Positions 1 to 27,402 are shown, counted from the stretch's first letter. The stretch: DNA of 64,000 nt from an uncultured Candidatus Saccharibacteria bacterium (GCA_964638425.1 CAZWYM010000002.1:2547-66546); one strand, 5' to 3'. A program made the numbers and translations. The notes: generated from the letters alone by a model not told the origin.

Positions 1-562
1 CGTCTTTAACTCCTCCGAGTTCGAGTACAGTACGTACAGAACTTCCTGCAACGAGTCCACGGCCTGGTGCTGGCATAATCATTACCTCACTTGAAGAAAC
101 TTTAACGTTTACATCATGTGGAATATGCTGATGCTTGTTTAGTGGAATTTCGATAAGGTTCTTTCGCGCATTTCGTACCGCCTTTTCAATTGCAAGCTGT
201 GTGTCTCCAGCCTTTCCGATTCCTACTCCAACCTTGCCCTTTCGGTTACCAATCACAATCGCAACGCTAAAACTGAAGCGACGACCTCCGGCCATCACAC
301 GTGTTACACGTCGGATGCTGATAATTTTTTGATCGAATTCTGAACGTACACGTTCTTCTCTTCGAGGCGCTCGACGCGCTCGGCGTGGGTTTCGTCGACT
401 ATCTGCATCTGCACCACCACGATACGCACCCCGTCCGCTCGCTTCTGCCTTTACGGGAGTTGCCGCATCGCCAGCTGGTGCATCGGTAGTAGCGGTTGTT
501 TCTGCTACTACATCTGAAACTTCCGTTTCATTTATAGCTTCCTGCTGATTTGTTTCACTCAT
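1..562 (-). CDS. rpsE: 30S ribosomal protein S5, 3' end truncated by the window edge; N-terminal Ala/Thr-rich extension
   Basis: Hand translation of the minus strand from the ATG at 560-562 gives MSETNQQEAI...IISIRRVTRVMAGGRRFSFSVAIVIGNRKGKVGVGIGKAGDTQLAIEKAV, the S5 dsRBD/S5 motif. It sits next to rplR in the canonical spc order. Confidence 0.8.
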   Translation of the reverse strand, partial: MSETNQQEAINETEVSDVVAETTATTDAPAGDAATPVKAEASGRGAYRGGADADSRRNPRRARRAPRREERVRSEFDQKIISIRRVTRVMAGGRRFSFSVAIVIGNRKGKVGVGIGKAGDTQLAIEKAVRNARKNLIEIPLNKHQHIPHDVNVKVSSSEVMIMPAPGRGLVAGSSVRTVLELGGVKD

Positions 563-586
563 AGTATCTGTTATTTGTTTAATAAA

Positions 587-937
587 TTAAAATTCAAGAC
601 CTCCTTCACGCGCTCCTTCTGCGAGCGCAACAACTGCTCCTTGGTATCTGAAACCACCTCGGTCAAATACCACTTTGTTAATTCCCTTCTTTTTTGCTTC
701 AGTTGCAACAAGCTGTCCGATTTCCTTTGCTCGTTCAATCGCTGTCTTTGCCTTTGCCTTTCGTGTATCTGTCCCCACGAGCGTTACTCGCGCCTCATCG
801 TCAATGAGTTGTGCATACATGAAACGGTTGCTTCGAAAGACGGCAAGACGTGGGCATGCTGCAGTACCTTGTACCTTTGCACGAATACGTGCGTGGCGGC
901 GGGTTCGATTTGCTACTTTTTGTGATGTAATACTCAT
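587..937 (-). CDS. rplR: 50S ribosomal protein L18
   Basis: 116-aa ORF. The C-terminal ...KVVFDRGGFRYQGAVVALAEGAREGGLEF is typical of L18. Position is between S5 and L6. Confidence 0.9.
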   Translation of the reverse strand: MSITSQKVANRTRRHARIRAKVQGTAACPRLAVFRSNRFMYAQLIDDEARVTLVGTDTRKAKAKTAIERAKEIGQLVATEAKKKGINKVVFDRGGFRYQGAVVALAEGAREGGLEF

Positions 938-958
938 GATACGTTTCTAAGTGTCAGA

Positions 959-1495
959 CTATGCAACACCTTTCTTACCTTGCTTTCGAATAATATACTC
1001 ACCCTTGTAGTGAATACCCTTTCCTTTGTATGGTTCAGGCTTCTTCTTTTCGCGAATGTCAGCAGCAAATTGTCCAACAACTTCTTTGTCAATTCCTGTA
1101 ACCGTAATAACTCCCTTCTCTGCAGCAACCTGCACTCCCTCTGGAGCAATAAGCTCAACAGGGTGTGAGAAGCCAACTGCAAGTTTGATTTTATTCCCTT
1201 GTGCTTCAGCCTTATACCCAACTCCTTCAATTTCGAGAATCTTTGTGAAACCAACGGTCACTCCCGTTATCATGTTGTGTACATGTGCTGCGTATGTTCC
1301 CCAGAGTGCTTGTGAACTCTTTGTGTCCTTTGCTTTCGCAAGCGTGATTACTCCTCCATCAATCGTTATTGTAATATCACCCGTCACTGTCCGCGTGAGT
1401 TCACCCTTTGGTCCCTTAACCTTAAGTACACCATCAACAAGCGTCACTTCGACGTTTGCAGGGATCTGTACTGGTTGTTTTCCTAATCGACTCAT
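959..1495 (-). CDS. rplF: 50S ribosomal protein L6
   Basis: MSRLGKQPVQIPANVEVTL...KGKGIHYKGE matches the L6 family. Start trimmed to the internal ATG at 1493-1495. The track ORF starts further upstream and overlaps rpsH. Confidence 0.85.
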   Translation of the reverse strand: MSRLGKQPVQIPANVEVTLVDGVLKVKGPKGELTRTVTGDITITIDGGVITLAKAKDTKSSQALWGTYAAHVHNMITGVTVGFTKILEIEGVGYKAEAQGNKIKLAVGFSHPVELIAPEGVQVAAEKGVITVTGIDKEVVGQFAADIREKKKPEPYKGKGIHYKGEYIIRKQGKKGVA

Positions 1496-1505
1496 ATGTT
1501 TATAA

Positions 1506-1901
1506 TTACCAAATGATGAATAGCTCTTCTCCTCCAACGTTTTTCTCTCGCGCCTGTTCTCCGGTAAGAATACCTGCTGGAGTTGAAAGAATTCTCTTTC
1601 CTTTTCCAAACTTTACAGGGAATATTTCAGAAACACTGAGATAGAGCCTTCGACCTGGCTTTGAAACGCGCTGTACACCTTGAATTTGATGCACTCCGTC
1701 TCCGTCGTACTTGAGTGTAATATCAAGTGTCTTCTTCACCTTCTTTCCATGCTTATCAACTTCTCCAACAAAACCTGCTTCTGCAAGCTTGTCTGCAATT
1801 GCATGCTTGAGCTTTGAGTATGGAATACTCACCTTTCCTTTACGTACCATTCCTGCATTTTTGAGCTGAATGATGAAATCTCCTACTGGGTCGTTTACCA
1901 T
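1506..1901 (-). CDS. rpsH: 30S ribosomal protein S8
   Basis: 131 aa with MVNDPVGDFIIQLKNA and a C-terminal ...ILSTPAGILTGEQAREKNVGGEELFIIW, typical of S8. Confidence 0.9.
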   Translation of the reverse strand: MVNDPVGDFIIQLKNAGMVRKGKVSIPYSKLKHAIADKLAEAGFVGEVDKHGKKVKKTLDITLKYDGDGVHQIQGVQRVSKPGRRLYLSVSEIFPVKFGKGKRILSTPAGILTGEQAREKNVGGEELFIIW

Positions 1902-2080
1902 GATGATTTCTTAATACCTGGTATATGTCCTTCATGTGCTGCTTCACGGAAGCAAATACGGCACATGTCAAAGTCACGCATATAACCGCGCTTTCGTGCG
2001 CACTTAAAGCATCGACGTACTACCTGACTTTTGAATTTTGGCGTACGCATTGCACGCAAAATAACTGATTTTCTTGCCAA
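1895..2080 (-). CDS. rpsZ: 30S ribosomal protein S14 type Z (zinc-binding); apparent TTG start
   Basis: 61 aa ending ...CFKCARKRGYMRDFDMCRICFREAAHEGHIPGIKKSSW with a CxxC...CxxC zinc ribbon. The first codon is ttg. Overlaps rpsH by 7 nt. Confidence 0.85.
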   Translation of the reverse strand: MARKSVILRAMRTPKFKSQVVRRCFKCARKRGYMRDFDMCRICFREAAHEGHIPGIKKSSW

Positions 2081-2129
2081 TTTGATAGTTGGTTAGCCTC
2101 GGATACTCCTAGGCGTTGCTCATAATAAA

Positions 2130-2260
2130 TGTAACTGGTGAGCCGTTTCACTACGAATCAGTGACTACACTCTCCGTTCGCGGTACTCCCAAAGACTCGC
2201 TTTCCGTCACTTTTCTCATAGAAAAGTTTGATCGGCGCGTCTAGATTTACTCAAAATGAG
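2130..2260 (-). repeat. degenerate R1-like element 3' of the inserted gene 2380-2910
   Basis: ...ctccgttcgcggtactcccaaagactcgct-[acttttctc atag aaaagt]-ttgatcggcgcgtc; partial similarity only. Confidence 0.35.
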
Positions 2261-2330
2261 TAAAAACAAGAGAGTGTGCGAATATCGCTACAGGGAGGAA
2301 TATACCAAAATTAGGCTCTAAAGTCAATAA

Positions 2331-2379: not shown

Positions 2380-2910
2380 CTAGTGGCATATCTCAAACGC
2401 AATGCCGGTTCCGAAGTTCCAATATCCATTTTTCTTGTCCGGGCATGCAAGAAGCATTTTACATGCGTCAAATATAGTTGCGGTCAGGAAAGAGGGCCTA
2501 TTTTCAGCGGTTTTAATCGGTTTATGAAAAGCAACCACACTTTCAAGTCGTTGCCTTTTGAACTCATCCGGAGAAAATTTCTCCAAAATAAGACACGCTG
2601 CTTCGGCATTGAGCCTCGTCCACTTCATTTTTTCAGCTTTGGCACAGATATTCTCTGTCTCATGTTCACTGACAATGTGTGGGGACACTCTCAGAATCCC
2701 AATGTCGACAATTCGCCCTGAACTTGGAATAAAGTCTGGTGAGTTGAGAATACTTTTTGCAGATTCACTTAAAGTAATGCCATTTCGTTCAAGCCGGTCT
2801 ATCCAGTCAGGGCCTGATGTTCCGTCCGTAACGAAAGTTGCGAAAATTACATTAAATGCGTCCGATTCTAAGTACTGATTTCTATGTGTGCCTACAATGT
2901 CTGTGTTCAT
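2380..2910 (-). CDS. hypothetical protein (176 aa) inserted between rpsZ and rplE; no recognisable family
   Basis: Strong SD (aaggaggg) upstream of the ATG at 2908-2910. Flanked by perfect hairpins at 2331-2363 and 3057-3086 and by R1-family copies. Confidence 0.5.
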   Translation of the reverse strand: MNTDIVGTHRNQYLESDAFNVIFATFVTDGTSGPDWIDRLERNGITLSESAKSILNSPDFIPSSGRIVDIGILRVSPHIVSEHETENICAKAEKMKWTRLNAEAACLILEKFSPDEFKRQRLESVVAFHKPIKTAENRPSFLTATIFDACKMLLACPDKKNGYWNFGTGIAFEICH

Positions 2911-3056
2911 ACTTCCCTCCTTACCCTCATGGGGTTTCCAAATCCTCTAATCCGAGGCGGAACTGTGTGCTTTTTGAGCCACAGCACGATACCAAAGAAC
3001 CTACTTATGGCCATAATTTTAACATAAAATACTACGATGTCAAATTGCCACGCAAC

Positions 3057-3086
3057 TAAAATCCCGAGTATATAACTCGGGATTTT
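3057..3086. terminator. hairpin aaaatcccgagt-atataa-ctcgggatttta between rplE and gene 2380-2910
   Basis: Perfect 12-bp stem with A/T flanks. Confidence 0.6.
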
Positions 3087-3146
3087 ATAGAAAGTTTTAT
3101 CGTATTCAATTACTTAGTCTTCTTCTCTGATTCCTTTTGGAGGGGA

Positions 3147-3235
3147 AGGGTCAAGTTGCTAATTCGCTACGCTTATAAGTAAGCACTTCCTCCCCGGACT
3201 CGCCACTTTTGCATTAGTAATAGCAAAAGTATGGC
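3147..3235 (-). repeat. R1 structured-repeat copy H (sense on the minus strand, 3' of rplE)
   Basis: ttgctaattcgctacgcttataagtaagcacttcctccccggactcgcc-[acttttgc attagtaat agcaaaagt]-atggctccgtctc. Confidence 0.6.
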
Positions 3236-3289
3236 TCCGTCTCTTTCCATTGCCGAACGAGAAACTGTTCTCATTCTAAAAATAGTAAA

Positions 3290-3823
3290 CTATTTTTGCA
3301 ATGGCAAGCCAATATGTCGTAAGAATGCTTCTGCTTCCTTCTTTGTCTTTGCTGTTGTTACGATAGTGATTCCAAAACCAAACACATCTTTGATGTCTTC
3401 GTCAGCTGTTTCTGGGAAAATAGTATGTTCCTTAATACCAAGTGTGTAGTTCCCCATTTCATCGATAGCACTTACCTTGAGTCCTCGGAAGTCTCGTGTT
3501 TGTGGAAGTGAGAGATGAATGAGCTTGTGGAGGAAGTCGTGCATTCGTGGACCACGGAGTGTTGCTTGGTATCCAATGATTTCACCTTCACGAAGTTTGA
3601 ATGAAGCAATTGATTGCTTCGCTGGTCGCGGAGCTGCCTTTTGACCAGTAATTTGCGCAAGTCGATTCTGAATAAGCGCAATCTTTTGCTTATCTTGAAT
3701 TTTTCCAACACCAGTACCAACCACAACCTTCACGATGCGTGGCGCTTGCATTTTATTCGTGTATCCAAGCTCTCCCTTGAGTGCTTCGTACGTTCCGTTT
3801 AATGTTTCTTTCATTGATTTCAT
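3290..3823 (-). CDS. rplE: 50S ribosomal protein L5
   Basis: 177-aa ORF with L5-like sequence ...IVKVVVGTGVG...GNYTLGIKEHTIFPE. Lies between L24 and the S14 side of the cluster. Confidence 0.9.
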   Translation of the reverse strand: MKSMKETLNGTYEALKGELGYTNKMQAPRIVKVVVGTGVGKIQDKQKIALIQNRLAQITGQKAAPRPAKQSIASFKLREGEIIGYQATLRGPRMHDFLHKLIHLSLPQTRDFRGLKVSAIDEMGNYTLGIKEHTIFPETADEDIKDVFGFGITIVTTAKTKKEAEAFLRHIGLPLQK

Positions 3824-3853
3824 ACGACCAAAATTATTATCCTTGTATCCAAA

Positions 3854-4171
3854 CTATATCTTTACTCCTGAAGGGCGTGCGACACGTACCTTCTTTGCTG
3901 TTGCTCCTTCTCCCTCAACAACATATCCTACACGGACCGCCTTTCCTGTCTTTGCATCCTTAAGTGCAACGTTTGATGATGGGAATGGCATTGGCTTTGC
4001 AACAATTTGTCCTTGTGAACCTCGTCGCTTTGCTTTCTGGTGTCGGCTAACGATATTTACACCCTCAACAAGTACTTCATGCTTCTTTGGGAACGCACGA
4101 ATAACAGTACCGGTCTTCCCTCGGTCCTTTCCTGCTGTAACGATGATTGTATCTCCTTTTTTAATCTTCAT
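3854..4171 (-). CDS. rplX: 50S ribosomal protein L24
   Basis: 105 aa; MKIKKGDTIIVTAGKDRGKTGTV is the KOW motif. Confidence 0.9.
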   Translation of the reverse strand: MKIKKGDTIIVTAGKDRGKTGTVIRAFPKKHEVLVEGVNIVSRHQKAKRRGSQGQIVAKPMPFPSSNVALKDAKTGKAVRVGYVVEGEGATAKKVRVARPSGVKI

Positions 4172-4192
4172 ATATAAATAATTAGAATATGC

Positions 4193-4564
4193 TTAGACGA
4201 CCTCTGGTGCGAGCGACACGATTTTCTGATAGCCCGCCTCTCCTAATTCTCGAGGAATTGGACCAAACACACGGTTTGCCTTTGGTTCCTTTTTCTCCTT
4301 ATCAACGAGTACAACTGCATTATCATCGAAGCTTACGTATGAACCATCCTTTCGTCGGAATGCCTTTCTCTGTCGTACCACAACTCCGTAACAGATATCC
4401 TTCTTCTTTACTTGCTTTCGTGGTTCTGCTGTCTGGATTGAGAGAACAACGAGTTCACCGAGTTCTGCATATCGCTTCTTTGAACCTCCAAGCACCTTGA
4501 ACACTCGGCCTATCTTTCCTCCTGAATTGTCAGTTATTTTGACTATTGATTGTGGTTGAATCAT
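4193..4564 (-). CDS. rplN: 50S ribosomal protein L14
   Basis: 123 aa; MIQPQSIVKITDNSGGK...VVRQRKAFRRKDGS is typical of L14. Confidence 0.9.
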   Translation of the reverse strand: MIQPQSIVKITDNSGGKIGRVFKVLGGSKKRYAELGELVVLSIQTAEPRKQVKKKDICYGVVVRQRKAFRRKDGSYVSFDDNAVVLVDKEKKEPKANRVFGPIPRELGEAGYQKIVSLAPEVV

Positions 4565-4584
4565 ATAAAAATTTTATGAAGTGA

Positions 4585-4851
4585 TTAGCTCTTCACAAGT
4601 TCAAAGTGCTTTCTCTTTGAAAGCGGTCTTGTTTCTCTAATTTCGACCTTATCTCCCTCCTTTGCTGTATTTCCCTTGTCATCTACAAGAAACTTCTTTG
4701 TTCGTCGCATGAACTTCTTGTACTTTGGGTGCATAACGTAACGTTCAACAGCAACGGTGATGGTGTCCTGCATTTTTGTCGCGACAACGGTACCACGAAG
4801 GACCCGTCCATTCGAGAGTGTTGTTTCTGTTGTTGTTTTTTCTGTTGCCAT
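4585..4851 (-). CDS. rpsQ: 30S ribosomal protein S17
   Basis: 88 aa; LRGTVVATKMQDTITVAVERYVMHPKYKKF is typical of S17. Confidence 0.9.
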   Translation of the reverse strand: MATEKTTTETTLSNGRVLRGTVVATKMQDTITVAVERYVMHPKYKKFMRRTKKFLVDDKGNTAKEGDKVEIRETRPLSKRKHFELVKS

Positions 4852-4878
4852 AATAATATGTTTTATAAATACTACTTG

Positions 4879-5073
4879 TTATGCTGCCCTTGTTCGTGCG
4901 TTGAGCAGTGTGAGTGCTCGTGCAATCTCTCGACGTGTATCTCTCACTGCGTGCGAATTTCGCGCACCTGCTCCAGCTGTTCCGAAGCGCATCTTCTGTA
5001 GTTCGTCTCTCTTTTCTGCAATAAATGCGAGGAGATCGGCGTCGTTTTTTTGTTGTAATTCAGATATTTTCAT
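4879..5073 (-). CDS. rpmC: 50S ribosomal protein L29
   Basis: 64 aa; MKISELQQKNDADLLAFIAEKRDELQKMRF is typical of L29. Confidence 0.8.
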   Translation of the reverse strand: MKISELQQKNDADLLAFIAEKRDELQKMRFGTAGAGARNSHAVRDTRREIARALTLLNARTRAA

Positions 5074-5084
5074 ATTTGTATGTA

Positions 5085-5519
5085 TTACACTCGAGTTTCC
5101 TCACGAGTAACTACCTTCGCCTTGAGTGGGAGCTTTGCAGTTGCCTTTCTAAGCGCCTCTCGTGCGACAGCTTCGCTCACTCCATCGATTTCAAAGAGAA
5201 CACGTCCTGGTCGAACATCGAAGATAAAGTGATCAGGATCCCCCTTTCCTTTACCCATACCTACTTCTGCAGGCTTCTTTGTAACTGGCTTGTCTGGGAA
5301 GATACGAATCCAAATCTTGCCTGTCTTGCCAAGTGTTCGAGAAATAACACGTCGCGCAGCCTCAATTTGATTTGATTTCACTCGAGATTGTGTTTGTGCC
5401 TTAAGTCCGAATGCTCCAAAAGAAACAGTCGTACCTCGAGTCTCAGGTGCATTAAGTCGATCGACGTGCTTTCGATCTGTTTGCCACTTTCGGTGTTTTA
5501 CTTTTTTAGGAAATAACAT
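5085..5519 (-). CDS. rplP: 50S ribosomal protein L16
   Basis: 144 aa; [14 protein letters not shown]...GMGKGKG is typical of L16. Confidence 0.9.
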
Positions 5520-5530
5520 ACAAAATTTGA

Positions 5531-6253
5531 TTATGCGCTTCGGCTTCGGTTACGACGATCCGTTTGTGTTGCCTGCTCTTCAGCATTTGCCTTTCGGTCA
5601 GTGAAGATGTCGCCACGGTAAATCCATACTTTCACACCAATAGCTCCATACGGGAGTGTTGCAGTCTCACGTGCAAAATCAATATCTGCGCGGAGTGTCT
5701 GGAGAGGAATACGTCCTTTCTTAGTCTCTTCCTTTCGAGCCATTTCAGCACCACCGAGGCGTCCTGAGGCAATAATACGGACACCCTTCACGTCTCTGTT
5801 TGCCATTACCTTCTCTGCGGTCATCTTCATGACGCGTCGGAATGGCATACGCTTCTCGAGACCTTCAACAACCATTTGTCCAACGATTGAAGCACTCGTC
5901 TCTGGTGAACGTACTTCTTCAATATCAATTTTCACTTCTGGCTGAACCTCGAGTTTAAGCGTACGGAGGAGCATATCAATCTCCTTTTTGAGCTTTGTTG
6001 CTCCTTCACCACTTCGTCCAATGATGAGCCCTGGTCGTGATGAACTAATGATGATACGGAAAATCTTCTCGTTTCGTTCAATCTCAACATTAGCAATGTG
6101 CATGTTACGAAGCTTCTTCGTAAGATACTTTCGCACAGCGCCATCAGTACGGATATACTCCCGATATTTCTTAGGATCAGCAGCGAACCATCGTGACTTC
6201 CAGTCACGGATGACTCCGAGGCGTTGTACGTATGGGTGTGCGACGTGTGTCAT
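5531..6253 (-). CDS. rpsC: 30S ribosomal protein S3
   Basis: 240 aa with KH domain and S3 C-terminal motif ...RIIASGRLGGAEMARKEETKKGRIPLQTLRADIDFA. Confidence 0.9.
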   Translation of the reverse strand: MTHVAHPYVQRLGVIRDWKSRWFAADPKKYREYIRTDGAVRKYLTKKLRNMHIANVEIERNEKIFRIIISSSRPGLIIGRSGEGATKLKKEIDMLLRTLKLEVQPEVKIDIEEVRSPETSASIVGQMVVEGLEKRMPFRRVMKMTAEKVMANRDVKGVRIIASGRLGGAEMARKEETKKGRIPLQTLRADIDFARETATLPYGAIGVKVWIYRGDIFTDRKANAEEQATQTDRRNRSRSA

Positions 6254-6271
6254 GGTATTAAATAGTTAAAA

Positions 6272-6595
6272 TTATTTTGTTCCTAACTCAACAGTTATGT
6301 GACTGTTTCGCTTGTTAATTCGAGCTGCTGTTCCTCGAGCGCGTGGCATAAATCGCTTGAAGATAATACCCTTATCAACTGCAACTCGCTTTACGATAAG
6401 TGCTGCTGTATCTGCGCCCTGTGACTTTGCATTTGCCTCAGCTGATTTGATGAGTTTTGCAAATGGCTCAGAAGCTCGTTTGTTTACAAACTTCAATGTT
6501 TCAAGAGCATTTTTAACACTCTTTCCACGAACAAGGTCAGCAATAAGCCGTACTTTACGTGGTGACTGTCGATAGTTTTTTAGAAAAGCTTTCAT
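6272..6595 (-). CDS. rplV: 50S ribosomal protein L22
   Basis: 107 aa; ...SPRKVRLIADLVRGKSV...KRFMPRARGTAARINKRNSHITVEL. Confidence 0.9.
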   Translation of the reverse strand: MKAFLKNYRQSPRKVRLIADLVRGKSVKNALETLKFVNKRASEPFAKLIKSAEANAKSQGADTAALIVKRVAVDKGIIFKRFMPRARGTAARINKRNSHITVELGTK

Positions 6596-6615
6596 AATTC
6601 AAAATGTGGAACTGA

Positions 6616-6954
6616 CTATTTTTTATCACCTGAACTCTTTGCTGCCTTTGCTGCTGCAACTTCAGCCTCCTTTCGCTTTGTTTCAAGCTCCTTCTGCATC
6701 TTACCTCCGTGTCGAATAAACTTCTTCGTAGGAGAAAATTCACCAAGTCGGTGACCTACCATTTCTTCAACAACAAGGACTTCAACGTGCGTCTTGCCAT
6801 TATGTACACCGAACTTGAATCCAACCATTTCTGGTGAAATTACTGAAGCGCGATCCCACACTTTAACAACCGCAGTATCTGCTGGCTTCTTGTCTTGAAT
6901 TTTCTTCAAGATTTTTGGGTTGATATATGGTCCTTTATATAGTGATCGTGACAT
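6616..6954 (-). CDS. rpsS: 30S ribosomal protein S19 with a Lys/Ala-rich C-terminal extension
   Basis: 112 aa; ...FGVHNGKTHVEVLVVEEMVGHRLGEFSPTKKF... Confidence 0.9.
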   Translation of the reverse strand: MSRSLYKGPYINPKILKKIQDKKPADTAVVKVWDRASVISPEMVGFKFGVHNGKTHVEVLVVEEMVGHRLGEFSPTKKFIRHGGKMQKELETKRKEAEVAAAKAAKSSGDKK

Positions 6955-8076: not shown

Positions 8077-8126
8077 TTCCTTCTCCTTCTGTGTTAAAGA
8101 CCAAAATCAGCGATTATTATACATTA

Positions 8127-19602: not shown

Positions 19603-19632
19603 AGTACTGTGTAATGCTTCTAAATAATAGTG

Positions 19633-20823
19633 TTAGGCAACAATCTTTGTTACCACTCCAGCTCCAACAGTTCGCCCTCCTTCACGGATAGCAAAGTTCT
19701 GTTGTTCTTCGAGTGCTACTGGAGCTACGAGCTTCACTTTGAATTTCGCAGTATCCCCTGGCATAACCATCTCTACACCTTCAGCAAGAGTAACTTCTCC
19801 TGTTACGTCAGTTGTACGGATATAGAATTGAGGCTTGTATCCAGTAAAGAATGGTGTGTGTCGTCCTCCTTCATCCTTTGAAAGTACGTATACTTCTGCT
19901 TCAAAGTCTGTGTGTGGAGTAACTGAGTTCTTTGCTGCAAGAACCTGACCTCGGTGTACATCTTCCTTCTTTGTACCACGGAGGAGGATACCTGCGTTGT
20001 CTCCAGCTTGTGCAGCGTCAAGTTGTTTGTTGAACATTTCAACTCCGGTAACAGTTGTTGCCATAGTATCCTTGATACCAACAATTTGAACTTCTTCACC
20101 AACCTTTACGCGCCCTCGTTCTACACGACCAGTTACCACGGTACCTCGTCCTTCAATTGAGAAGATGTCCTCAATAGGCATAAGGAATGGCTTGTCGAGA
20201 TCACGAACTGGCATTGGGAAGTATGAATCCATTGCATCAACGAGTTCGAGTACCTTTGTACCCCATTCGCTTGATGGATCTTCAAGTGCCTTAAGACCTG
20301 AACCCTTAATAACAGGAGCCTTCGCACCATCGAAGCCGTTCTTTGTGAGAAGTTCACGAAGTTCTTCTTCAACGAGCTCAATCATTTCAGCGTCGTCAAC
20401 CATATCGCACTTGTTAAGGAATACGATGATGTTTGGTACACCAACCTGCTTTGCAAGGAGAACGTGCTCACGTGTTTGTGGCATCGCTCCGTCTGTTGCA
20501 GCAACCACGAGAACAGCACCGTCCATCTGTGCGGCACCAGTAATCATGTTCTTGATGTAGTCTGCGTGTCCTGGCGCATCAATGTGTGCGTAGTGACGGT
20601 TTGGAGTCTCGTACTCAGAGTGTGAGAGAGAAATAGTAATACCTCGTGCCTTTTCTTCTGGTGCCTTATCGATGTCATCTACACCTTTAACTGATGCACC
20701 ATATCCATTTCCCTTAGCGTTAAGCACGGTAAGGATTGCAGCGGTGAGCGTTGTCTTTCCATGGTCTACGTGACCAATAGTTCCAACGTTTACGTGCGGC
20801 TTTGAACGATCAAATTCTGCCAT
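19633..20823 (-). CDS. tuf: elongation factor Tu (start trimmed to [26 protein letters not shown])
   Basis: [15 protein letters not shown] and NKCD GTPase motifs. 396 aa from the ATG at 20821-20823. Confidence 0.95.
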
Positions 20824-21174
20824 AGTATTAAAACTAACTATTAGATAATAATTCCGCACACTGCAATCCTCTTTCATAAAAAATAAAAGAAGCACGATGA
20901 GTACACACAGGGAAGGGCGCGAGAACGCTGCCTTACCTCTGATACTTATCGTTGCATGTCAAAAAGAGCAAAAACTCCCTCAATCAGAGTCCAAAGAGAC
21001 CTGACGCGGTGACCGCAATAGTACAAGAATGCCCATATTTTTGCAAGCGGGGCGGAGACCATCTTTCGGTGACTTGTGTTTTAAATATTATGTGGTACTG
21101 TCCACACAGAAACACACCTGTGCATTTGTCACTGTTCTTTATCAAACATTCCCTACGTAAAGGAGAAAAGCATC

Positions 21175-21570
21175 ATGCCTACTGAAATACATGAGAATTT
21201 TAGGCTTAAAATCGACACAATTTGTAAAGTACCAATATTTGTCACCCCTGTAGCTGACTCACTTGTTACCAAAAAGTGGGATGCCCATGGTCCTACCATT
21301 CATCTTCAAGTGGTTAATGAGGCGGGATCCCTCTTTCATGTAAGTGACTTAGAAAAGATGTGTCTCAATAGACAGGACTTGAAATGCATCCTCGATTTGT
21401 GTGAACGACGCCCACTCCTCCTCTGCAGGACCTTTCTTACCGGCGGGAATTCTGCATGCACACGATTTCATCGGAAGTATTGGCATATTGATGGTCAGGG
21501 ACTCATACATATATCGTTCATTCTTCATGAAGAGAAAGAACCTATACTCGAAGGCGACCCGCGCGCATAG
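21175..21570 (+). CDS. hypothetical protein (131 aa) inserted between fusA and tuf on the opposite strand
   Basis: SD aaaggagaaaag before the ATG at 21175. Followed by the terminator at 21588-21627. Confidence 0.4.
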   Translation: MPTEIHENFRLKIDTICKVPIFVTPVADSLVTKKWDAHGPTIHLQVVNEAGSLFHVSDLEKMCLNRQDLKCILDLCERRPLLLCRTFLTGGNSACTRFHRKYWHIDGQGLIHISFILHEEKEPILEGDPRA

Positions 21571-21587: not shown

Positions 21588-21627
21588 AAAAACCCCATTT
21601 GCGGATGCAAATGGGGTTTTATTTTTT
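21588..21627 (+). terminator. hairpin aaaaccccatttgc-ggat-gcaaatggggtttt plus T tract
   Basis: Perfect stem followed by ttattttttc. Confidence 0.65.
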
Positions 21628-21649
21628 CTAGGCTTCCTCAATATCTTTC

Positions 21650-21745
21650 AGCGTCAGGTTTCTAAACTCACCACGTTCGTTAAGAACCTCCTGCCCGGCC
21701 TCACGGTTTCGTCTCCTTGCGGTCGACGAAACATCGTTCCGGCTT
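21650..21745 (-). repeat. R1 structured-repeat copy D (sense on the minus strand, 3' of fusA)
   Basis: The reverse complement reads agccggaacgatg-[tttcgtc gaccgcaaggaga gacgaaa]-ccgtgag-gccgggcaggaggtt-cttaacgaacgtggtgagtttagaaacctgacg. Confidence 0.8.
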
Positions 21746-21888
21746 TTGTCAAGGACTGAAGAAGCTTACGCTTCTTCTTCAATATCCTTCCCTCCTTACA
21801 GGAGCAGTACACCTTGTGGATATTTTGTTTCGTTAGGATTCACAAAATACCTCACAAGCTCGGTAAAAGATATATCGAAGCAATAACT

Positions 21889-21916
21889 AAAAATGCACCC
21901 TCTCGGGTGCATTTTT
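21889..21916 (-). terminator. hairpin aaaaatgcaccc-tctc-gggtgcattttt immediately 3' of fusA
   Basis: Perfect stem with A/T tracts, 3 nt from the fusA stop. Confidence 0.65.
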
Positions 21917-21918
21917 AG

Positions 21919-24096
21919 TTATTCTTCGGTTTCTATATCTTTTACCCCTCTCGCCTTCTTGATTTCGATTGCCACGTTTGGTGGTACAACATCGTAATGA
22001 TCAAATTCCATCGTCATGTTTGCTCGTCCTTCAGTCATTGAGCGAAGTGCTGTGGTATACCCAAACATTTCTGAAAGTGGCACTTTCGCATGAACTACAC
22101 GTACAAGGTCTCGGTCTTCCATACCCTCCACGAGTCCACGCTTTGAACTAATGTTTCCGTTTACGTCACCCATGAACTTCTCTGGGGTAGTAACCTCTAC
22201 CTTCATGATTGGTTCAAGGAGGACCGCACCTGCCTTTTGAGCTGCTTCCTTAAATGCATGAATACCTGCAAGACGGAATGCAATTTCGCTTGAGTCTACA
22301 TCGTGGTAGCTACCATCGAAGAGTTCGACTGAAACGTCCTCCATTTTGTACCCAGCCACAAATCCTCGTGCCATTGCCTCCTTACATCCCTTCATAACAG
22401 CTGGGATAAATTCGTTTGGAATAACTCCTCCCTTAATGTTATTAACGAATTCGAAGTGATCTTCACGAGTGATGTTTTTCGCAAGTGACTTTCCTTCTTC
22501 GAGTTCAAGCGGTTCAAGTGGTTTAATTCGAATCTTCACGTGACCGTACTGACCACGACCTCCTGATTGCTTAACATACTTGTATTCAGCTTCAGCTGAA
22601 TGTTGAATTGTTTCTCGGTATGCTACCTGTGGCTTACCTACGTTTGCTTCAACACCGAACTCTCGCTTCATTCGGTCTACGAGAATTTCGAGGTGAAGTT
22701 CACCCATACCTGCAATAATCGTTTCTCCAGTCTCTTCATCGCTCGAAATTTTGAATGTTGGGTCTTCATCTGAAAGCTTCTTCATAGCCATACCCATTTT
22801 TTCTTGGTCGTTCTTTGTCTTTGGCTCGATACGCATTGCAACCACTGGTTCAGGGAAGACAATTTGTTCAAGTGCAATTGGATGATTTTCATCACAGAGA
22901 GTGTGTGAAGTTTTTACATCCTTAAGACCTACTCCTGCAGCAATTTCACCAGCGTATACCTCTTCGACTTCTGTTCGTTTATCTGCCATGAGTCGTACGA
23001 TACGTCCGAGTCGCTCTTTCTGCCCTGTTGTTGAGTTGTAGATGTAGCTTCCTGCCTTCACTGTACCTGAGTACACACGGAAGAATGTAAGCTGTCCTAC
23101 GAATGGGTCTGTCTGGAGTTTAAATGCTAGCGCACAGAATGGTGATGCGTCATCAGCAATTCGAGTTTCTTCAACATCAGTGTCTGGATTCGTTCCCTTA
23201 ATAGCAGGGAGATCAACTGGAGATGGAAGGTAGTCAACAACGGCATCGAGTACACGTTGTACTCCCATGTTCTTGAGTGCAGAACCAGTCATCACAGGGA
23301 AAATTTTGTTTGCAATCACCGCCTTTCGAAGTGTCTTTTGAAGCTCTTCATAGCTTGGTTCAACACCTTCAAGATATGCATTCATTTGTGCATCGTCATG
23401 TTCCACAATTCGTTCAACAAGTTCACCGTGATACTTTTCTGCATCAGCACGAAGCTCATCTGGAATTTCAACTTCCACTACCTTCATTCCCATTTCTCCT
23501 TCAAATACATACGCCTTCATCTTGAGAAGGTCGACAACTCCCTTGAGGTTTTCTTCACTTCCCCATGGAATTTGGTATCGCACTGCCTTTGGAGAAAGGC
23601 GTGAAAGAATTGAAGCATATGAACGCTCAAAATCTGCTCCTGTTCGGTCCATCTTATTGATGAAACAAATTCGTGGAACTCCAGCTTCGTCAGCGTATCT
23701 CCAGTTTGTTTCTGATTGTGGCTCTACACCTGCTACTCCGTCGAATACGACGATAGCACCATCAAGCACGCGCATCGAACGCTTTACTTCTGCGGTAAAG
23801 TCGATGTGTCCAGGAGTATCGATGATGTTAAAAGTATATTTAAAATCATCATTATTTCGGTCTGCAATGAGTGATGGAGTCCAGTTACATGAAATCGCTG
23901 CAGCAGTAATAGTAATACCTCGTTCTCGTTCCTGCTCCATCCAGTCAGTTACGGTTGCGCCATCGTGCACCTCTCCGATTTTGTGACTCATTCCTGTATA
24001 AAAGAGTACGCGCTCAGAAGTTGTGGTTTTACCCGCGTCTACGTGAGCAACGATACCGAAGTTTCGAAGCTTATGAAGTGGAAATGCTCGTGCCAT
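21919..24096 (-). CDS. fusA: elongation factor G
   Basis: 725 aa; N-terminal AHVDAGKTTT..., DTPGHIDF and NKMDR G-domain motifs. Confidence 0.95.
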   Translation of the reverse strand: MARAFPLHKLRNFGIVAHVDAGKTTTSERVLFYTGMSHKIGEVHDGATVTDWMEQERERGITITAAAISCNWTPSLIADRNNDDFKYTFNIIDTPGHIDFTAEVKRSMRVLDGAIVVFDGVAGVEPQSETNWRYADEAGVPRICFINKMDRTGADFERSYASILSRLSPKAVRYQIPWGSEENLKGVVDLLKMKAYVFEGEMGMKVVEVEIPDELRADAEKYHGELVERIVEHDDAQMNAYLEGVEPSYEELQKTLRKAVIANKIFPVMTGSALKNMGVQRVLDAVVDYLPSPVDLPAIKGTNPDTDVEETRIADDASPFCALAFKLQTDPFVGQLTFFRVYSGTVKAGSYIYNSTTGQKERLGRIVRLMADKRTEVEEVYAGEIAAGVGLKDVKTSHTLCDENHPIALEQIVFPEPVVAMRIEPKTKNDQEKMGMAMKKLSDEDPTFKISSDEETGETIIAGMGELHLEILVDRMKREFGVEANVGKPQVAYRETIQHSAEAEYKYVKQSGGRGQYGHVKIRIKPLEPLELEEGKSLAKNITREDHFEFVNNIKGGVIPNEFIPAVMKGCKEAMARGFVAGYKMEDVSVELFDGSYHDVDSSEIAFRLAGIHAFKEAAQKAGAVLLEPIMKVEVTTPEKFMGDVNGNISSKRGLVEGMEDRDLVRVVHAKVPLSEMFGYTTALRSMTEGRANMTMEFDHYDVVPPNVAIEIKKARGVKDIETEE

Positions 24097-24276
24097 ATGT
24101 AATGTATTAATAAATTAAAATAAACTGAACCGGTGACTTCCCTAATTACTGTGAAAAACACAGGAGGGTCTGGGGCTAAGTGGCGTTACTATACGGTATT
24201 TACCTCTATTCGGCAATACGCATTGCTATTCAATTCTCCCTCTCACATGTCAATAAAAGCCGGCTATAATACATGC

Positions 24277-25281
24277 ATGAAATATACGTATGTTTCTTTC
24301 CTATTTCTAATGACTCTTTTCAGTCACACCGTCTCTGCAGAAGAATTAAATGCAGGGTTTGTTCAGGGTCTTTGGTATTCAAATGAGCACGTTTTCGTTG
24401 ACACCCCAACACGTGTCTACGTTGCGCTCCGAAACAACACCGAACACGACCTCACCGGAACGGTACTCTTTACCGATAATGGTAAGCGTATTGGATCATC
24501 GTATGTAAGTACCCTCTCGGGGAGACTTGTCGAGGCTTGGGTGGACTGGGTTCCGACCTACGGGGAACACAAAATAACCGCATATGTGAGTGATGCCGAA
24601 CTTCATGTTATTGGAAAAGGAAAGGAATCAATAGATATGACGAGTATCGTTGCGGAAGATACGCTTCTGGTTGATTATGATACCGACCATGATGGCATTG
24701 GAAATGAAACGGATACCGACGATGATAACGACACAGTATCTGATCTCGAAGAACAATCGCGAGGAACCAACCCCGTTGTCGCCAATCCGCAAGAAAAAAA
24801 GGCTGACGTTGCTGAAGAACCAGCCAAAGTAAACACGGTTCAGGCGGAACCTTCACCTTCAAACAACGAAACGTCCGGGCAAGGACTCGAACGATTTGTT
24901 GAAAACCCTACCGCAGACGCACTCCTGAGTGGTCTCACCTCAAAGGTAGAGCAAGCAAAGGAGTCCCTCGATACCTACCGCAAGGAACGTAATGAAGCAC
25001 AAGATACACCTTCGATAACTTCAGAAGAACCCGAAACGAAGCTGGGTACATACACAGAGAATGCCACCATTACTCGAACAAAAATTGAAACGAAGAATAG
25101 TTTCCTTAGTTCATTTGTGTCAGGAATGGCTGCGATCCTCCAAAAAATATACACCCTCTTCCTCTGGATACTCTCAAAAATACTTTCATCCCCTTCACTT
25201 CTTGAACTCGCTTTGCTGTTAAGCATTCTCTACACCCTGTACCGCGTCGCGCGCGGGTTTGGAAGACGACCAAATATGTAG
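24277..25281 (+). CDS. secreted/membrane-anchored protein with signal peptide, acidic DxDxDGxxN Ca-binding-like repeat and a C-terminal TM segment
   Basis: MKYTYVSFLFLMTLFSHTVSA signal peptide; DYDTDHDGIGNETDTDDDNDTVSD; hydrophobic C-terminus. The start is ambiguous (24247 or 24277). TATAAT at 24265-24270 sits 6 nt before 24277. Confidence 0.5.
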   Translation: MKYTYVSFLFLMTLFSHTVSAEELNAGFVQGLWYSNEHVFVDTPTRVYVALRNNTEHDLTGTVLFTDNGKRIGSSYVSTLSGRLVEAWVDWVPTYGEHKITAYVSDAELHVIGKGKESIDMTSIVAEDTLLVDYDTDHDGIGNETDTDDDNDTVSDLEEQSRGTNPVVANPQEKKADVAEEPAKVNTVQAEPSPSNNETSGQGLERFVENPTADALLSGLTSKVEQAKESLDTYRKERNEAQDTPSITSEEPETKLGTYTENATITRTKIETKNSFLSSFVSGMAAILQKIYTLFLWILSKILSSPSLLELALLLSILYTLYRVARGFGRRPNM

Positions 25282-25303
25282 CCTTATGCTACACTATTCG
25301 CCT

Positions 25304-25654
25304 ATGAATACATACAAAGGAAGCTGTCACTGCGGTGCGGTAACGTACACCGTGAATGCAGATATTGAAAACGCAATTGATTGCAACTGCTCACACTGTT
25401 CGCGTAAGGGAATGTTACTCAGTTTTATCCCAGGGGAAGAGTTTACTCTCCTATCAGGCGAGGAAAATCTCACTGATTATTTATTCAATAAGAAATACAT
25501 CCACCACCTTTTCTGTAAGACATGTGGTGTGCAATCATTTGCACGAAGTATGAATAGCGAGGGGAAGGAAACGATTGCGCTCAACGTGCGCACCCTCCAC
25601 GACTTTGATTTGGAAGCACTGACTCTAATCAAAGCAGACGGAAAACATTCGTAA
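25304..25654 (+). CDS. GFA-family zinc protein (glutathione-dependent formaldehyde-activating enzyme/CENP-V-like)
   Basis: MNTYKGSCHCGAVTYTV...DCNCSHCSRKG...FCKTCG cysteine motifs. Confidence 0.6.
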   Translation: MNTYKGSCHCGAVTYTVNADIENAIDCNCSHCSRKGMLLSFIPGEEFTLLSGEENLTDYLFNKKYIHHLFCKTCGVQSFARSMNSEGKETIALNVRTLHDFDLEALTLIKADGKHS

Positions 25655-25687
25655 TTGTAATCATCTAAAATTCAAAGAAATACCGCG

Positions 25688-25720
25688 TCCTTTGAGAGAC
25701 GCGGTATTTTCTAACCTGAA
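25688..25720. terminator. hairpin aaataccgcgtc-ctttgagag-acgcggtatttt (bidirectional)
   Basis: Perfect 12-bp stem between convergent genes. Confidence 0.6.
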
Positions 25721-26028
25721 ACTGAAAAGCCTGCCTTATGTGCGCCTGTTGCAATCACCTGTTTTGCACCATCTACATCAGACGCATATATTCGCAGTTC
25801 TTGAATAGATATATTATCTCGCACTGACAAGAGAAGACTTCCTTCACCTATTGTGATTTTTACCCGCCGCTGTCCTTTCGTATTGGGAAGTCCTGATTTT
25901 ATGAAGCCAACAGAAATTTTGGTGACGTACGCACTCCCATCTGCAATATCTGCAATTATTACAGCCGCAGGAATGCAGGTGGTGTGACTCCCACTAAACT
26001 TTCCGCCATTTCGTGAATGCTTTGACAT
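25711..26028 (-). CDS. hypothetical protein (105 aa), possibly beta-helical (bactofilin-like Gly/Val periodicity); weak call
   Basis: ORF with ATG but no clear SD. Overlaps the hairpin by a few nt. Confidence 0.3.
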   Translation of the reverse strand: MSKHSRNGGKFSGSHTTCIPAAVIIADIADGSAYVTKISVGFIKSGLPNTKGQRRVKITIGEGSLLLSVRDNISIQELRIYASDVDGAKQVIATGAHKAGFSVSG

Positions 26029-26142
26029 CGTTGCATTTTACACCACTGTTCTAAATACAATGAGTGCTAATAATAACCTTGCTTAAGAACTCGCTTTGGT
26101 AAATCACATTCTTGAGGAGAGAACGCGAAGAAAGCCCCGAAT

Positions 26143-26199
26143 TTTTGCGAGCCGTACTAGACGTACGGTGAACAAAAATTCGGGGCTTTCGACAAAGTT
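26143..26199 (-). terminator. long compound hairpin aaagccccgaatttttg ... acaaaaattcggggcttt enclosing ccgtac-tag-acgtacgg, about 120 nt 3' of rpsG
   Basis: Read directly; about 17-bp outer stem plus an inner palindrome. Confidence 0.5.
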
Positions 26200-26317
26200 A
26201 TCTTCCGAGAATGTGGTCTTTAGACGACAACTCGTGATATTTTTTCGCTTTGTCCTCAAAAATATCTACGAGTTCCTGTAAAAGTTTCGATATTGTCGCT
26301 ACGCTCTGTATCTCACT

Positions 26318-26791
26318 TTACCAGGCAAAATGGGCGAAAGCTCGGTTAGCCTCTGCCATCTTGTGTGTATCCTCTCGCTTCTTCACTGCTGCTCCTTCCT
26401 CACGTGCTGCGAGCATAAGCTCTGCTGCGAGTGACTTGAACATTGGTGTTCCCTTTTGCTTTCGTGCTGCTCCAATAATCCAACGGAGTGCAAGTGCGAG
26501 TCGTCGTTCTGGACGAACTTCACGTGGAACTTGGTAGTTTGCTCCACCAACTCGTCGTGAGCGGACTTCCATTTGTGGTCCCGCGTTACGGATTGCTGTT
26601 TCAAAAATCTCTACTGGGTCTCCACCTCCTTCCTTCGCGTTCTTAATTTCTTCAAATGCAGCGTATACAATCTTTCGCGCTGTCTCCTTCTGTCCATTTA
26701 CCATGATGTAGTTGATGAGACGTGACACATTTACTGAGTCATGTCGTTCATCTCCTCCTACTGGTGGTCGTCTTTTTATTGGTCGTCGCAT
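26318..26791 (-). CDS. rpsG: 30S ribosomal protein S7
   Basis: 157 aa; ...[24 protein letters not shown]... Confidence 0.9.
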
Positions 26792-26907
26792 ATATTTTTA
26801 TTGGTCGTCGCATATTGTGGCATTCTTTCGAATCCACTCTATAATCTTTAGCGACTATAAACTATTAATTAAATTAATTTTTGTTTGAGGCCTACTTTGT
26901 GTATAGT

Positions 26908-26942
26908 GACGTCGCATTTTCTTCTGTGTGAAGAAAATGCGA
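26908..26942 (-). terminator. hairpin gtcgcattttcttc-tgtgtg-aagaaaatgcgac between rpsL and rpsG (attenuator-like)
   Basis: Perfect 14-bp stem inside the 194-nt rpsL-rpsG spacer. Confidence 0.45.
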
Positions 26943-26985
26943 CGGACTCAGAAATTACAGTCGCTTGCGCTCGTTAATTTCTGGC

Positions 26986-27402
26986 CTATTTACCTGCTTT
27001 GGGCTTCTTCGCACCGTATCGTGATCGTGATACTCGTCGCTTATCTACACCTGTTGCGTCGTATTTTCCACGAACGATAGTGTAGTTAACACCGATGTCC
27101 TTCACACGTCCACCTCGTACAAGTACCACAGAGTGTTCCTGAAGGGTGTGTCCCTCACCTGGAATGTACGCGGTAATTTCCTGACCATTCGTGAGGCGTA
27201 CACGAGCAATCTTTCGAATAGCTGAGTTTGGCTTACGAGGAGTCTTTGTAGTTACACGAGTACACACACCACGCTTAAATGGTGAGTCATACTCGTTAGG
27301 ATGGTTAATGATCGAATTGAAACCAGAACGAAGCGCACCAGTTTTACTCTTGGTAGCGACGGTCTTTCGAGCCTTTTTTGTTAATTGATTGATTGTTGAC
27401 AT
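26986..27402 (-). CDS. rpsL: 30S ribosomal protein S12
   Basis: 138 aa; ...[53 protein letters not shown]... Confidence 0.95.

Follow-up and report, generated by a model that had tools for sequence, protein, structure and literature searches.

The gene order of the S10-spc ribosomal protein cluster is a textbook case of resistance to change, and phylogeny and binning in the candidate phyla radiation (CPR) make use of it through the "16 syntenic ribosomal proteins". Here we report an analysis of the str-S10-spc supercluster in a 64,000-nucleotide (nt) stretch of DNA, hereafter the window, which was deposited as part of an uncultured Candidatus Saccharibacteria bacterium (GCA_964638425.1, CAZWYM010000002.1:2547-66546) and carries the supercluster at positions 1 to 27402. 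In Gammaproteobacteria and Bacilli the supercluster is highly stable, and its rare changes are mostly insertions into the spaces between operons (Brandis 2021; Brandis et al. 2019, PMC6735719), with 77 of 115 events traced to gene insertions (Brandis 2021). The window resembles these cases in that a few genes have entered between ribosomal operons and broken their concatenation, the flanking order remaining canonical. The published insertions are rare, lineage-restricted and mostly located between classical operons (rpoBC|str and str|S10), whereas in the clade of the window the open sites lie inside the classical str, S10 and spc operons, are near-universal among the sampled genomes, and delimit new units with their own promoter and leader.

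Other parts of this architecture also have described counterparts. In the S10 leader of E. coli, attenuation is mediated by L4 and involves a strong hairpin followed by a U-tract; ribosomal protein leaders in general are conserved structured 5' untranslated regions directly upstream of an operon, as are those in the window. REP/BIME elements are extragenic palindromes of enterobacteria. Integration hotspots are reportedly flanked by core genes, and homology-facilitated illegitimate recombination is said to take place in natural transformation. Candidate leaders have been described for L4 upstream of rplC in Archaeoglobi and for L2 upstream of rplB-rpsS in Alphaproteobacteria, with no CPR leader listed (Eckert and Weinberg 2020, PMC7247131). 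Our literature searches returned no description of such a ribosomal-cluster architecture in CPR.

Based on a comparison with 80 related species and 80 metagenome loci, we propose that the supercluster of this lineage is built of seven autonomous units with break points that would be old, fixed and ancestral to the clade, and that the spaces at these points would be neutral and hold young, variable cargo genes. We assign this reading, taken as a whole, a probability of about 0.75.

Open and closed junctions of the supercluster

Genes were called from a listing of open reading frames (ORFs) together with NCBIfam and Pfam scans, ribosomal genes being assigned by NCBIfam equivalog matches. The window carries 23 translation genes, all on the minus strand, in the canonical order rpsL-rpsG-fusA-tuf-rpsJ-rplCDWB-rpsS-rplV-rpsC-rplP-rpmC-rpsQ-rplNXE-rpsZ-rpsH-rplFR-rpsE; a preliminary description of this DNA had given the order from rpsL-rpsG-fusA-tuf-rpsJ to rplR-rpsE as canonical, and every gene that it named has its equivalog match. 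The genes are not contiguous, with one to six non-ribosomal genes at each of five junctions, rpsG|fusA, fusA|tuf, rpsJ|rplC, rplB|rpsS and rplE|rpsZ, all of which had been listed there as interrupted.

As relatives we used the best 80 rplB matches among GTDB species representatives (60-91% identity), with loci defined as rplB +/-10 kb. All 80 are Paceibacteria/Parcubacteria metagenome-assembled genomes (MAGs), under names such as Kaiserbacteria, Nomurabacteria and Paceibacterota. Judging from these matches, the host of the window is a Paceibacteria (Parcubacteria, Kaiserbacteria-like) CPR bacterium; exact look-ups of its rplB and of the 266-amino-acid protein at 8195-8995 returned no record. 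The window proteins were located in the 80 loci by tblastn and every junction was then measured, a gap of more than 150 nt being scored as open and gaps above 1 kb being tallied separately. A second, independent set comprised 80 metagenome loci.

The junction rpsJ|rplC is open in 49 of 54 loci (36 above 1 kb, maximum 6435 nt), and rplB|rpsS in 48 of 49 (36 above 1 kb, maximum 6830 nt). Nearly the same holds for fusA|tuf, open in 29/30 loci with 13 gaps above 1 kb, and for rplE|rpsZ, open in 27/28 with 17 above 1 kb, while rpsG|fusA is open in four of five loci. Gap sizes at the five junctions range from 9 to 6830 nt across the 80 species. The other 16 junctions reach at most 331 nt in the 80 relatives, and they include the classical boundaries tuf|rpsJ and rpsQ|rplN, the latter (S10|spc) being closed, at no more than 94 nt, in all loci. 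The 80 independent metagenome loci have the same pattern of open and closed junctions. Since the same junctions are open in both sets, the break points appear to be ancestral to the clade. The preliminary description had taken the fragmentation for a dynamic process, and had itself named conservation of the interruptions among relatives as the observation that would speak against this. The synteny comparison returned such conservation: break points, promoters and leaders are shared across the clade and only the cargo is dynamic, so that of the earlier claim the part concerning gene turnover at the junctions stands.

In the most distant group of relatives (rplB 60-67% identical), rpsJ|rplC is often closed, and rplB|rpsS and rplE|rpsZ are mostly open, a pattern that hints at a stepwise opening of the junctions. 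In two metagenome loci (L106 and L133), the best rpsJ match is found about 4.7 kb downstream of the rplC leader described below, not upstream of it, which suggests that the cluster has been rearranged in some relatives.

Predicted transcription units, leader RNAs and the R element

The seven predicted units are all encoded on the minus strand. The first two consist of rpsL (26986-27402) and rpsG (26318-26791), each identified by NCBIfam, and the third of fusA (21919-24096; TIGR00484, 1033.7 bits). Unit 4 (19240-20823) combines tuf (19633-20823) and rpsJ (19240-19602), whose gap is at most 220 nt in 52 loci. Unit 5 (15125-17737, NCBIfam) comprises rplC (17117-17737), rplD (16379-17113), rplW (16006-16377) and rplB (15125-15985). 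Unit 6 (3290-6954) extends from rpsS (6616-6954) through rplV, rpsC, rplP, rpmC, rpsQ, rplN and rplX to rplE (3290-3823), and is tightly packed, with internal junctions of at most 181 nt in relatives. Unit 7 (1-2080) contains rpsZ (1895-2080), rpsH (1506-1901), rplF (959-1501), rplR (587-937) and rpsE, which is cut by the start of the window and has its reading frame at 1-562. The E. coli-type operon boundaries tuf|rpsJ and rpsQ|rplN are not kept; conserved promoters precede tuf, rplC, rpsS and rpsZ. Compared with their family models, four ribosomal proteins have N-terminal extensions: S5 (gene at 1-562) of about 73 amino acids, acidic and rich in Ala and Thr, L23 (16006-16377) of about 30, L4 (16379-17113) of about 27 and S10 (19240-19602) of about 20, all encoded on the minus strand.

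The preliminary description had divided the cluster into many transcription units, and the organization of the junctions agrees with this: a terminator-like hairpin and/or a copy of the structured repeat R described below is followed by a sigma-70-type promoter and a conserved leader. Most units close with an A/U-tract hairpin and/or an R element, and eight of the nine long inverted repeats in positions 1-28000 (arms of 16-28 nt) fall in junctions. Using blastn and iterated nhmmer, we detected conserved non-coding DNA upstream of tuf in 40/49 loci, of rplC in 65/74, of rpsS in 36/49 and of rpsZ in 9/28. Each conserved region begins with a conserved -35/-10 pair, and the leaders are 150-230 nt long. 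The tuf, rplC and rpsS elements stand directly upstream of a ribosomal protein operon and after its promoter, and structures supported by covariation were found for the rplC leader and for a helix of the rpsS leader.

The rplC promoter (TTGCAA-16-TATACT, 17898-17925, minus strand) is followed by a leader of 155 nt (17738-17892, minus strand) with helices P0, P1 and P2/P3. Its consensus starts with AGCUUUUAAAGACCUAYGU-[P1]-GACCAAUGGGCAC-[P2 AAACCGCG…[P3 GCGAGC UUGU GCUCGC]…CGCGGUUU] and continues after P2 with -UGUU…GGUC…AAAGC…UUUAUUAG…AUG. When the four-helix model was tested on a plain MAFFT alignment of 51 sequences, 80.5% of cells were paired versus 73.5% in shuffles (0/500 shuffles as high), and the covariation score was 0.243 versus 0.132 for shuffled alignments and at most 0.108 for slid partners. 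Helix P2 (97% paired) includes six pairs with double (compensatory) changes; RNAalifold recovers it unaided, and the minimum-energy fold of the window leader alone is the same model (z -5.19). In the window, P2 is the hairpin 17784-17844, and its location past the rplC promoter, with UUUUGUUAUU after it, makes it resemble an attenuator. The same hairpin had been described as closing the upstream pirin gene, a role that we reject because it lies after the rplC promoter and forms P2/P3 of the conserved 5' leader. A metagenome scan for two invariant blocks of the rplC leader returned at least 120 stretches, and among the matches listed rplC starts 68-339 nt downstream of the motif in 71 of the 73 metagenome loci with enough sequence.

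The rpsS leader region (6955-7199, minus strand; fold z-score -2.58) begins with the promoter TTGACA-17-TACTAT (7171-7199, minus strand) and contains a 17-bp helix capped by the invariant loop GGCCGTTACC, in which pairing reaches 92% and compensatory and G-U pairs are numerous. The tuf promoter (cTTGCAaaa…TGgTActAT) and its conserved leader of about 200 nt, with a conserved GTTCTCG hairpin, occupy 20824-21050 (minus strand); a tRNA and a small ORF were also considered for this leader and rejected, as no tRNA is present and the translation of the 53-amino-acid ORF looks non-coding. Upstream of rpsZ, a promoter-like site (TTGACT-17-TATATT, 2299-2327) together with the leader covers 2081-2327 (minus strand), a region whose conservation was seen by blastn in L003 and L009 and by nhmmer in the nine loci counted above.

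We regard the rplC and rpsS leaders as candidate new ribosomal-protein leader RNAs. By analogy with known leaders, each would be an autoregulatory site bound by a ribosomal protein from the downstream genes, and that of rplC would function as a terminator-type attenuator. The operon behind the rplC leader, rplC-rplD-rplW-rplB, has the same content as that behind the Archaeoglobi L4 candidate, and both this leader and the E. coli S10 attenuator end in a strong hairpin plus U-tract. It differs from the known leaders in its position after rpsJ rather than before it and in its absence from Rfam 15, where neither the leaders nor R had a match at the gathering score or at E up to 5.

At the 3' ends of units, the dispersed short repeats that had been named R1 and R2 proved to be one structured family of about 105 nt, here called R, with a 22-pair model and three or four helices. 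In 15 copies, 18 of the 22 pairs are compensatory and 91.5% of cells are paired versus 72% in shuffles; a covariance model collected 48 copies, for which the covariation score is 0.666 versus 0.19 for shuffled and at most 0.13 for slid partners. R is located 67-74 nt after the rplB stop in 20/72 loci, 41-64 nt after rplE in 8/42 and 11-54 nt after fusA in 3/30, and it was found after rpsJ in none of 54 loci. Its orientation is constant relative to the upstream gene, and its copies diverge between species about as much as the neighbouring genes do. In the window, R-type elements are present at the 3' ends of rpsL, rpsG, fusA, rplB and rplE, not at that of rpsJ, and copies also follow clpP, recJ, an HU gene and two tRNA-Gly genes. 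By these comparisons, R is a conserved 3'-end module of housekeeping units that is not visibly mobile. The repeats at the junctions are thus real structured elements, as previously noted, while nothing points to a role for them in causing the insertions, their offsets after rplB, rplE and fusA being fixed and their divergence gene-like.

One R copy lies about 40 nt 3' of the rplE stop (3145-3250, plus strand as the model strand; cmsearch 98.9 bits), two lie in the rplB 3' flank (14795-14901 and 14934-15052) and one lies 3' of fusA (21648-21752, 95.9 bits); the others are at 9275-9396, 34149-34247, 52594-52696, 55330-55432, 56040-56128 and 62278-62381. An ORF at 14799-15101 was rejected as a gene, since it corresponds to two R copies matched by the covariance model. 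The R loop motif AGCGNAGCGA occurs seven times versus 0.29 expected; one occurrence follows rpsG and a near-match follows rpsL. The rpsG 3' module (26130-26305, minus strand) contains the R-loop motif AGCGTAGCGA at 26296-26305 and a hairpin with 28-nt arms at 26130-26190. The fusA 3' module (21648-21923) consists of the R copy, a hairpin element (21795-21861) and, overlapping the fusA stop codon, a 19-bp A/U-tract terminator (21882-21923). This hairpin element, about 65 nt long, is also found at 55886-55952 after tRNA-Gly/HU, and its stems are kept by compensatory changes (CTTGTG/CACAAG versus CTTGCG/CGCAAG). An inverted repeat of 74 nt (90.5% identical; 34115-34188 and 37006-37079) has one arm in the R region near recJ and the other at 37.0 kb.

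The two indicators of the active strand of R disagree: the numbers of G-U versus A-C pairs (49 versus 12, mostly from two positions) point to the strand antisense to the upstream gene, and single-sequence folding energies to the sense strand in 41/48 copies. R is possibly a terminator helper, an RNA stabiliser, a block to antisense transcription or a small RNA. Like REP/BIME elements, it is multi-copy, extragenic, hairpin-forming and located just 3' of transcription units; unlike these 20-40 nt palindromes with their RAYT transposase, it is about 105 nt long with three or four helices, carries its own loop motif, has a fixed orientation and orthologous copies, and is accompanied by no RAYT-type transposase gene that we noticed in the window.

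The spacer between rpsL and rpsG (26792-26985, minus strand) measures 194 nt versus 27-48 nt in three relatives. It contains, as the preliminary description stated, a hairpin (26911-26943), which has 14 bp and no U-tract, and in addition an R-like half element similar to 9127-9173. At the start of rpsG, a 22-nt tandem duplication (26792-26840, minus strand) contains ATGCGACGACCAATAAAAA twice, the upstream copy being out of frame.

These data bear on an alternative in which the fragmentation is recent and ongoing, active mobile or recombinogenic R1/R2 repeats having opened a contiguous cluster and brought the genes in. R copies and rplB-flank modules do bracket the rplB|rpsS insert, where two pairs of repeats described below, D1 and rplB', are 96% and 98.9% identical, and related cargo occurs at different junctions, which recombination between dispersed R copies could explain. 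However, nearly all of the 80 relatives have these junctions open, with conserved promoters and leaders, and the R copies are orthologous, with fixed offsets and gene-like divergence. Moreover, R was not found after rpsJ although rpsJ|rplC is one of the main hotspots, and scans of the window cargo and of cluster representatives detected neither a transposase nor an integrase. We therefore consider recent fragmentation improbable and prefer old, fixed break points with changing cargo, in which common R copies could supply homology for moving cargo between junctions.

Cargo genes and the history of the rplB|rpsS space

In the relatives, the gaps contain 386 ORFs of at least 70 amino acids, which fall into 308 families, 285 of them singletons; restricting the set to at least 150 amino acids leaves 168 ORFs in 124 families. 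Most of the window cargo is absent from the relatives, and related cargo appears at different junctions in different genomes. Homologs of the secreted Asp-rich protein, which the window carries in rpsG|fusA, are encoded upstream of fusA in L007 and after rplB in L053; the only homolog of the orphan gene 2380-2910 (rplE|rpsZ) is located upstream of tuf in L080; and a homolog of the GFA gene is found upstream of fusA in L149. Recurrent families include secreted paralogs (19 members, spread over three junctions) and acidic proteins that bind peptidoglycan (14 members), along with MazF toxins and PhoH/PIN proteins. The proposal that the junctions are hotspots of gene gain is upheld by these data: five junctions are open in 80 species, their cargo is almost entirely non-homologous, and the 80 metagenome loci agree.

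The junctions share with genomic islands and integration hotspots a variable, non-homologous content between conserved core flanks. Flanking direct repeats are present at rplB|rpsS only (190 nt with 98.9% identity, and 115-nt D1 copies), and neither composition nor phylogeny is foreign, the alpha-glucan cassette at that junction having a G+C content of 0.40-0.42 versus 0.44 nearby and a GH15 similarity series within Paceibacteria. They differ from integration hotspots in that the window cargo includes no integrase or mobile-element genes and no tRNA/tmRNA attachment site was found, and in lying inside the most conserved bacterial gene cluster; no tRNA occurs in 1-27402. As a mechanism, we suggest that the space between the 3' module of one unit and the promoter of the next is selectively neutral and that the very conserved flanking genes act as anchors for homologous recombination with DNA of relatives, so that accessory genes would land in these spaces and soon be lost again.

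The recurrence of some families raises the alternative that the inserted genes are functional members of ribosomal operons, ribosome-associated or co-regulated, rather than neutral cargo. The window, L003, L009, L089, L139 and L165 all encode pirin between rpsJ and the rplC leader, on the strand of the ribosomal genes. A DUF2103-like protein of 105 amino acids occurs at rplB|rpsS in 24 loci (L011, L013, L014 and 21 others), and a DUF2103-like gene is present in the window too, at rpsG|fusA. Furthermore, the gap ORFs of at least 150 amino acids are mostly co-oriented with the ribosomal genes (117 versus 51). Set against these observations are the large share of singletons among the families, the promoters and terminators that cargo genes have of their own, and their recognisable functions, which are surface proteins, peptidoglycan binding, toxins, PhoH/PIN and glucan metabolism. 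In addition, the recurrent DUF2103-like gene is on the opposite strand, and the glucan cassette stands elsewhere in L086. We rate this explanation as unlikely for the cargo in general and keep to largely neutral cargo between autonomous units, although the small DUF2103-like proteins may be a ribosome-linked resident rather than cargo. The window protein and the recurrent 105-amino-acid family have no homology in pairwise BLASTP, though both weakly match PF09876.

In the window, rpsG|fusA contains the DUF2103-like gene (25711-26028, minus strand; 23.9 bits versus a cut-off of 22.4), a terminator (25678-25709), and the two genes previously called there, GFA (25259-25654, plus strand; E 2.9e-16) and the secreted Asp-rich protein (24133-25281, plus strand), whose signal peptide begins at 24277, probably its real start. 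The orphan genes reported for fusA|tuf and rplE|rpsZ are likewise present. The former is an ORF of 131 amino acids (21175-21570, plus strand) with an AAGGAG ribosome-binding site and a terminator at 21589-21620, and has no family match and no homolog in any relative locus. The latter (2380-2910, minus strand; 176 amino acids) has an AAGGAGG site and a promoter, TTGACA-16-TAAAAT, at 3016-3043, lacks a Pfam or NCBIfam match, and is followed by a perfect, terminator-like palindrome of 16+16 nt (2331-2362). In the same junction, the terminator-like hairpin AAAATCCCGAGT…ACTCGGGATTTT (3057-3086, minus strand) closes the rpsS-rplE unit.

The pirin gene (17934-18776, minus strand; Pfam Pirin and Pirin_C) and the small basic protein noted earlier in rpsJ|rplC were both found. 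Logan contigs L001 and L002 confirm the pirin gene, and the basic ORF of 100 amino acids (18834-19136, plus strand), which has no family match, is called as a gene in Logan assemblies; a bidirectional terminator hairpin (19140-19168) also closes tuf-rpsJ. Two hypothetical genes on the minus strand lie in rplB|rpsS next to rpsS, one of 265 amino acids (7279-8076) with a perfect TTGACA-16-TATAAT promoter (8116-8143) and a terminator (7234-7256), the other of 266 amino acids (8195-8995). Neither has a family match in Pfam or NCBIfam, which leaves the "LRAT-like" label given to one of them unsupported, and both are absent from all 80 relatives and from L085.

The rplB|rpsS gap spans 8.2 kb (6955-15124) and contains the alpha-glucan cassette recognised in the preliminary description. 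Its genes, all on the minus strand, encode GT4 (13340-14557), GH57 (11997-13331), a DUF5752-like protein of 122 amino acids that had been overlooked (11607-11975) and GH15 (9637-11601), and a promoter-like site is located at 14613-14640 (minus strand). In L085, a related organism, the cassette lies between rplB and rpsS (GH15 89% identical), and in L086 the four genes lie between rpmG and truB (GH15 75% identical). Because identity to the GH15 homologs declines smoothly within Paceibacteria (89, 76, 75 … 57%), a foreign origin was ruled out and the cassette appears to be native to the lineage; from its different locations in L085 and L086, we infer that the operon moved into the junction in a sub-clade.

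Behind the cassette follow rplB' (9413-9617, minus strand), a pseudogene that duplicates the final 190-204 nt of rplB, then a further rplB 3'-flank copy and finally the two hypothetical genes. Over 190 nt, rplB' (9428-9617) is 98.9% identical to 15135-15324, and it ends with …MGGGR*, as in the closest relative, L003. Neither L085 nor any of the 80 relatives has an rplB-type duplicate; among about 160 loci examined, rplB' is unique to the window genome. The copied flank, the third rplB 3'-flank module (9161-9396), includes a palindrome (9227-9268) and an R copy (9275-9396, 45.3 bits), and beside it the R-loop motif AGCGTAGCGA recurs at 9150-9159. The rplB 3' flank itself is duplicated as the D1 copies (14679-14793 and 15017-15131, 96% identical), each with a 48-nt palindromic A-tract/U-tract hairpin (14742-14789 and 15080-15127). 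The idea that rplB' is a footprint of cassette arrival was rejected, since in L085 the cassette occupies this site and the duplicate is absent; as, moreover, the cassette DNA of L085 and the window is only about 80% identical versus 98.9% for the duplicate, the duplication must be a later event.

The junction could thus have been assembled in three steps. The lineage-native alpha-glucan operon would have entered rplB|rpsS, a step common to the close relative L085. A later recombination would have added the two hypothetical genes behind a leftover rplB 3' end, the donor being DNA of a very close strain that started inside rplB and carried its own junction cargo, joined illegitimately on the rplB side and homologously on the rpsS side. 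Finally, the terminator/R module of rplB would have undergone tandem duplication. A truncated rplB' at the inner border is the trace expected of a one-sided anchor in homology-facilitated illegitimate recombination, which may have been the mechanism.

Repeats of 115-204 nt, as present in this region, can mislead assemblers, and the order of segments across the rplB repeat is known from the window contig alone, which raises the question of a chimeric contig in which unrelated DNA was joined via short repeats. Logan contigs from three other sequencing runs (SRR12762276, SRR12762296 and SRR12762297) reproduce the segments rpsJ-pirin-rplC…rplB and the glucan cassette with 99.9-100% identity to the window. 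They stop at 15295 and, in L083, at 9588. Both end points fall precisely 30 nt inside a copy of the 190-nt repeat, and a k=31 graph is bound to break there when such a repeat truly occurs twice. The L085 locus carries rplB-cassette-rpsS on one separate contig, and 80 relatives have the same architecture. Given this agreement of the Logan contigs, the fit of their end points to a true repeat and the continuity of L085, misassembly, which had been named as a finding that could undo the initial interpretation, is very unlikely.

Outside the supercluster, identical 35-nt terminator hairpins (33303-33337 and 34028-34062) flank the gene 33358-34020. At tRNA-Pro (60885-60960), an exact 26-nt partial duplicate (60740-60765 / 60896-60921) lies 156 nt upstream, where an integration event at the tRNA may have left it.

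Weight of the evidence and consequences for Paceibacteria

Several observations weigh against the proposed arrangement of autonomous units and neutral spaces. Taxon sampling covers one class, and the loci were picked by similarity to the window rplB. Promoters, terminators and unit boundaries are predictions from sequence and conservation; a simple terminator scan is only weakly enriched (21 found versus 15.8 expected in 1-20 kb), the rpsZ leader is limited to its nine loci, and no leader was shown for fusA or rpsG. Many short gap ORFs may be spurious, which would inflate the singleton count. The cargo is partly non-random, with at least five loci carrying pirin at rpsJ|rplC and 24 carrying the DUF2103-like protein at rplB|rpsS, so part of the gap content may consist of selected residents. 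Recombination at conserved anchors, too, is a mechanism that we infer.

A broader interpretation, which we hold tentatively and at somewhat under even odds, is that Paceibacteria have rewired the control of their ribosomal genes into insulated modules with new autoregulatory leaders and R-closed ends, the insulation in turn having created landing pads for other genes. Here the rplC leader would probably sense L4 or another protein of its own operon, and the rpsS, tuf and rpsZ leaders would have ligands of their own.

For the evolution of operons, the supercluster of this clade is a case in which the architecture was rebuilt while the gene order was kept. The five fixed sites with variable islands imply that the syntenic marker sets in these MAGs can be split across contigs, a matter of consequence for assembly and binning, since the Logan contigs studied here break at the repeats. 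The analysis also offers at least two testable candidates for new ribosomal-leader RNAs and a new structured repeat, in organisms whose regulation is little known. For the biology of these uncultured episymbionts, the junctions would provide defined places for strain-specific accessory genes, among them those for surface proteins, toxins and glycan metabolism.

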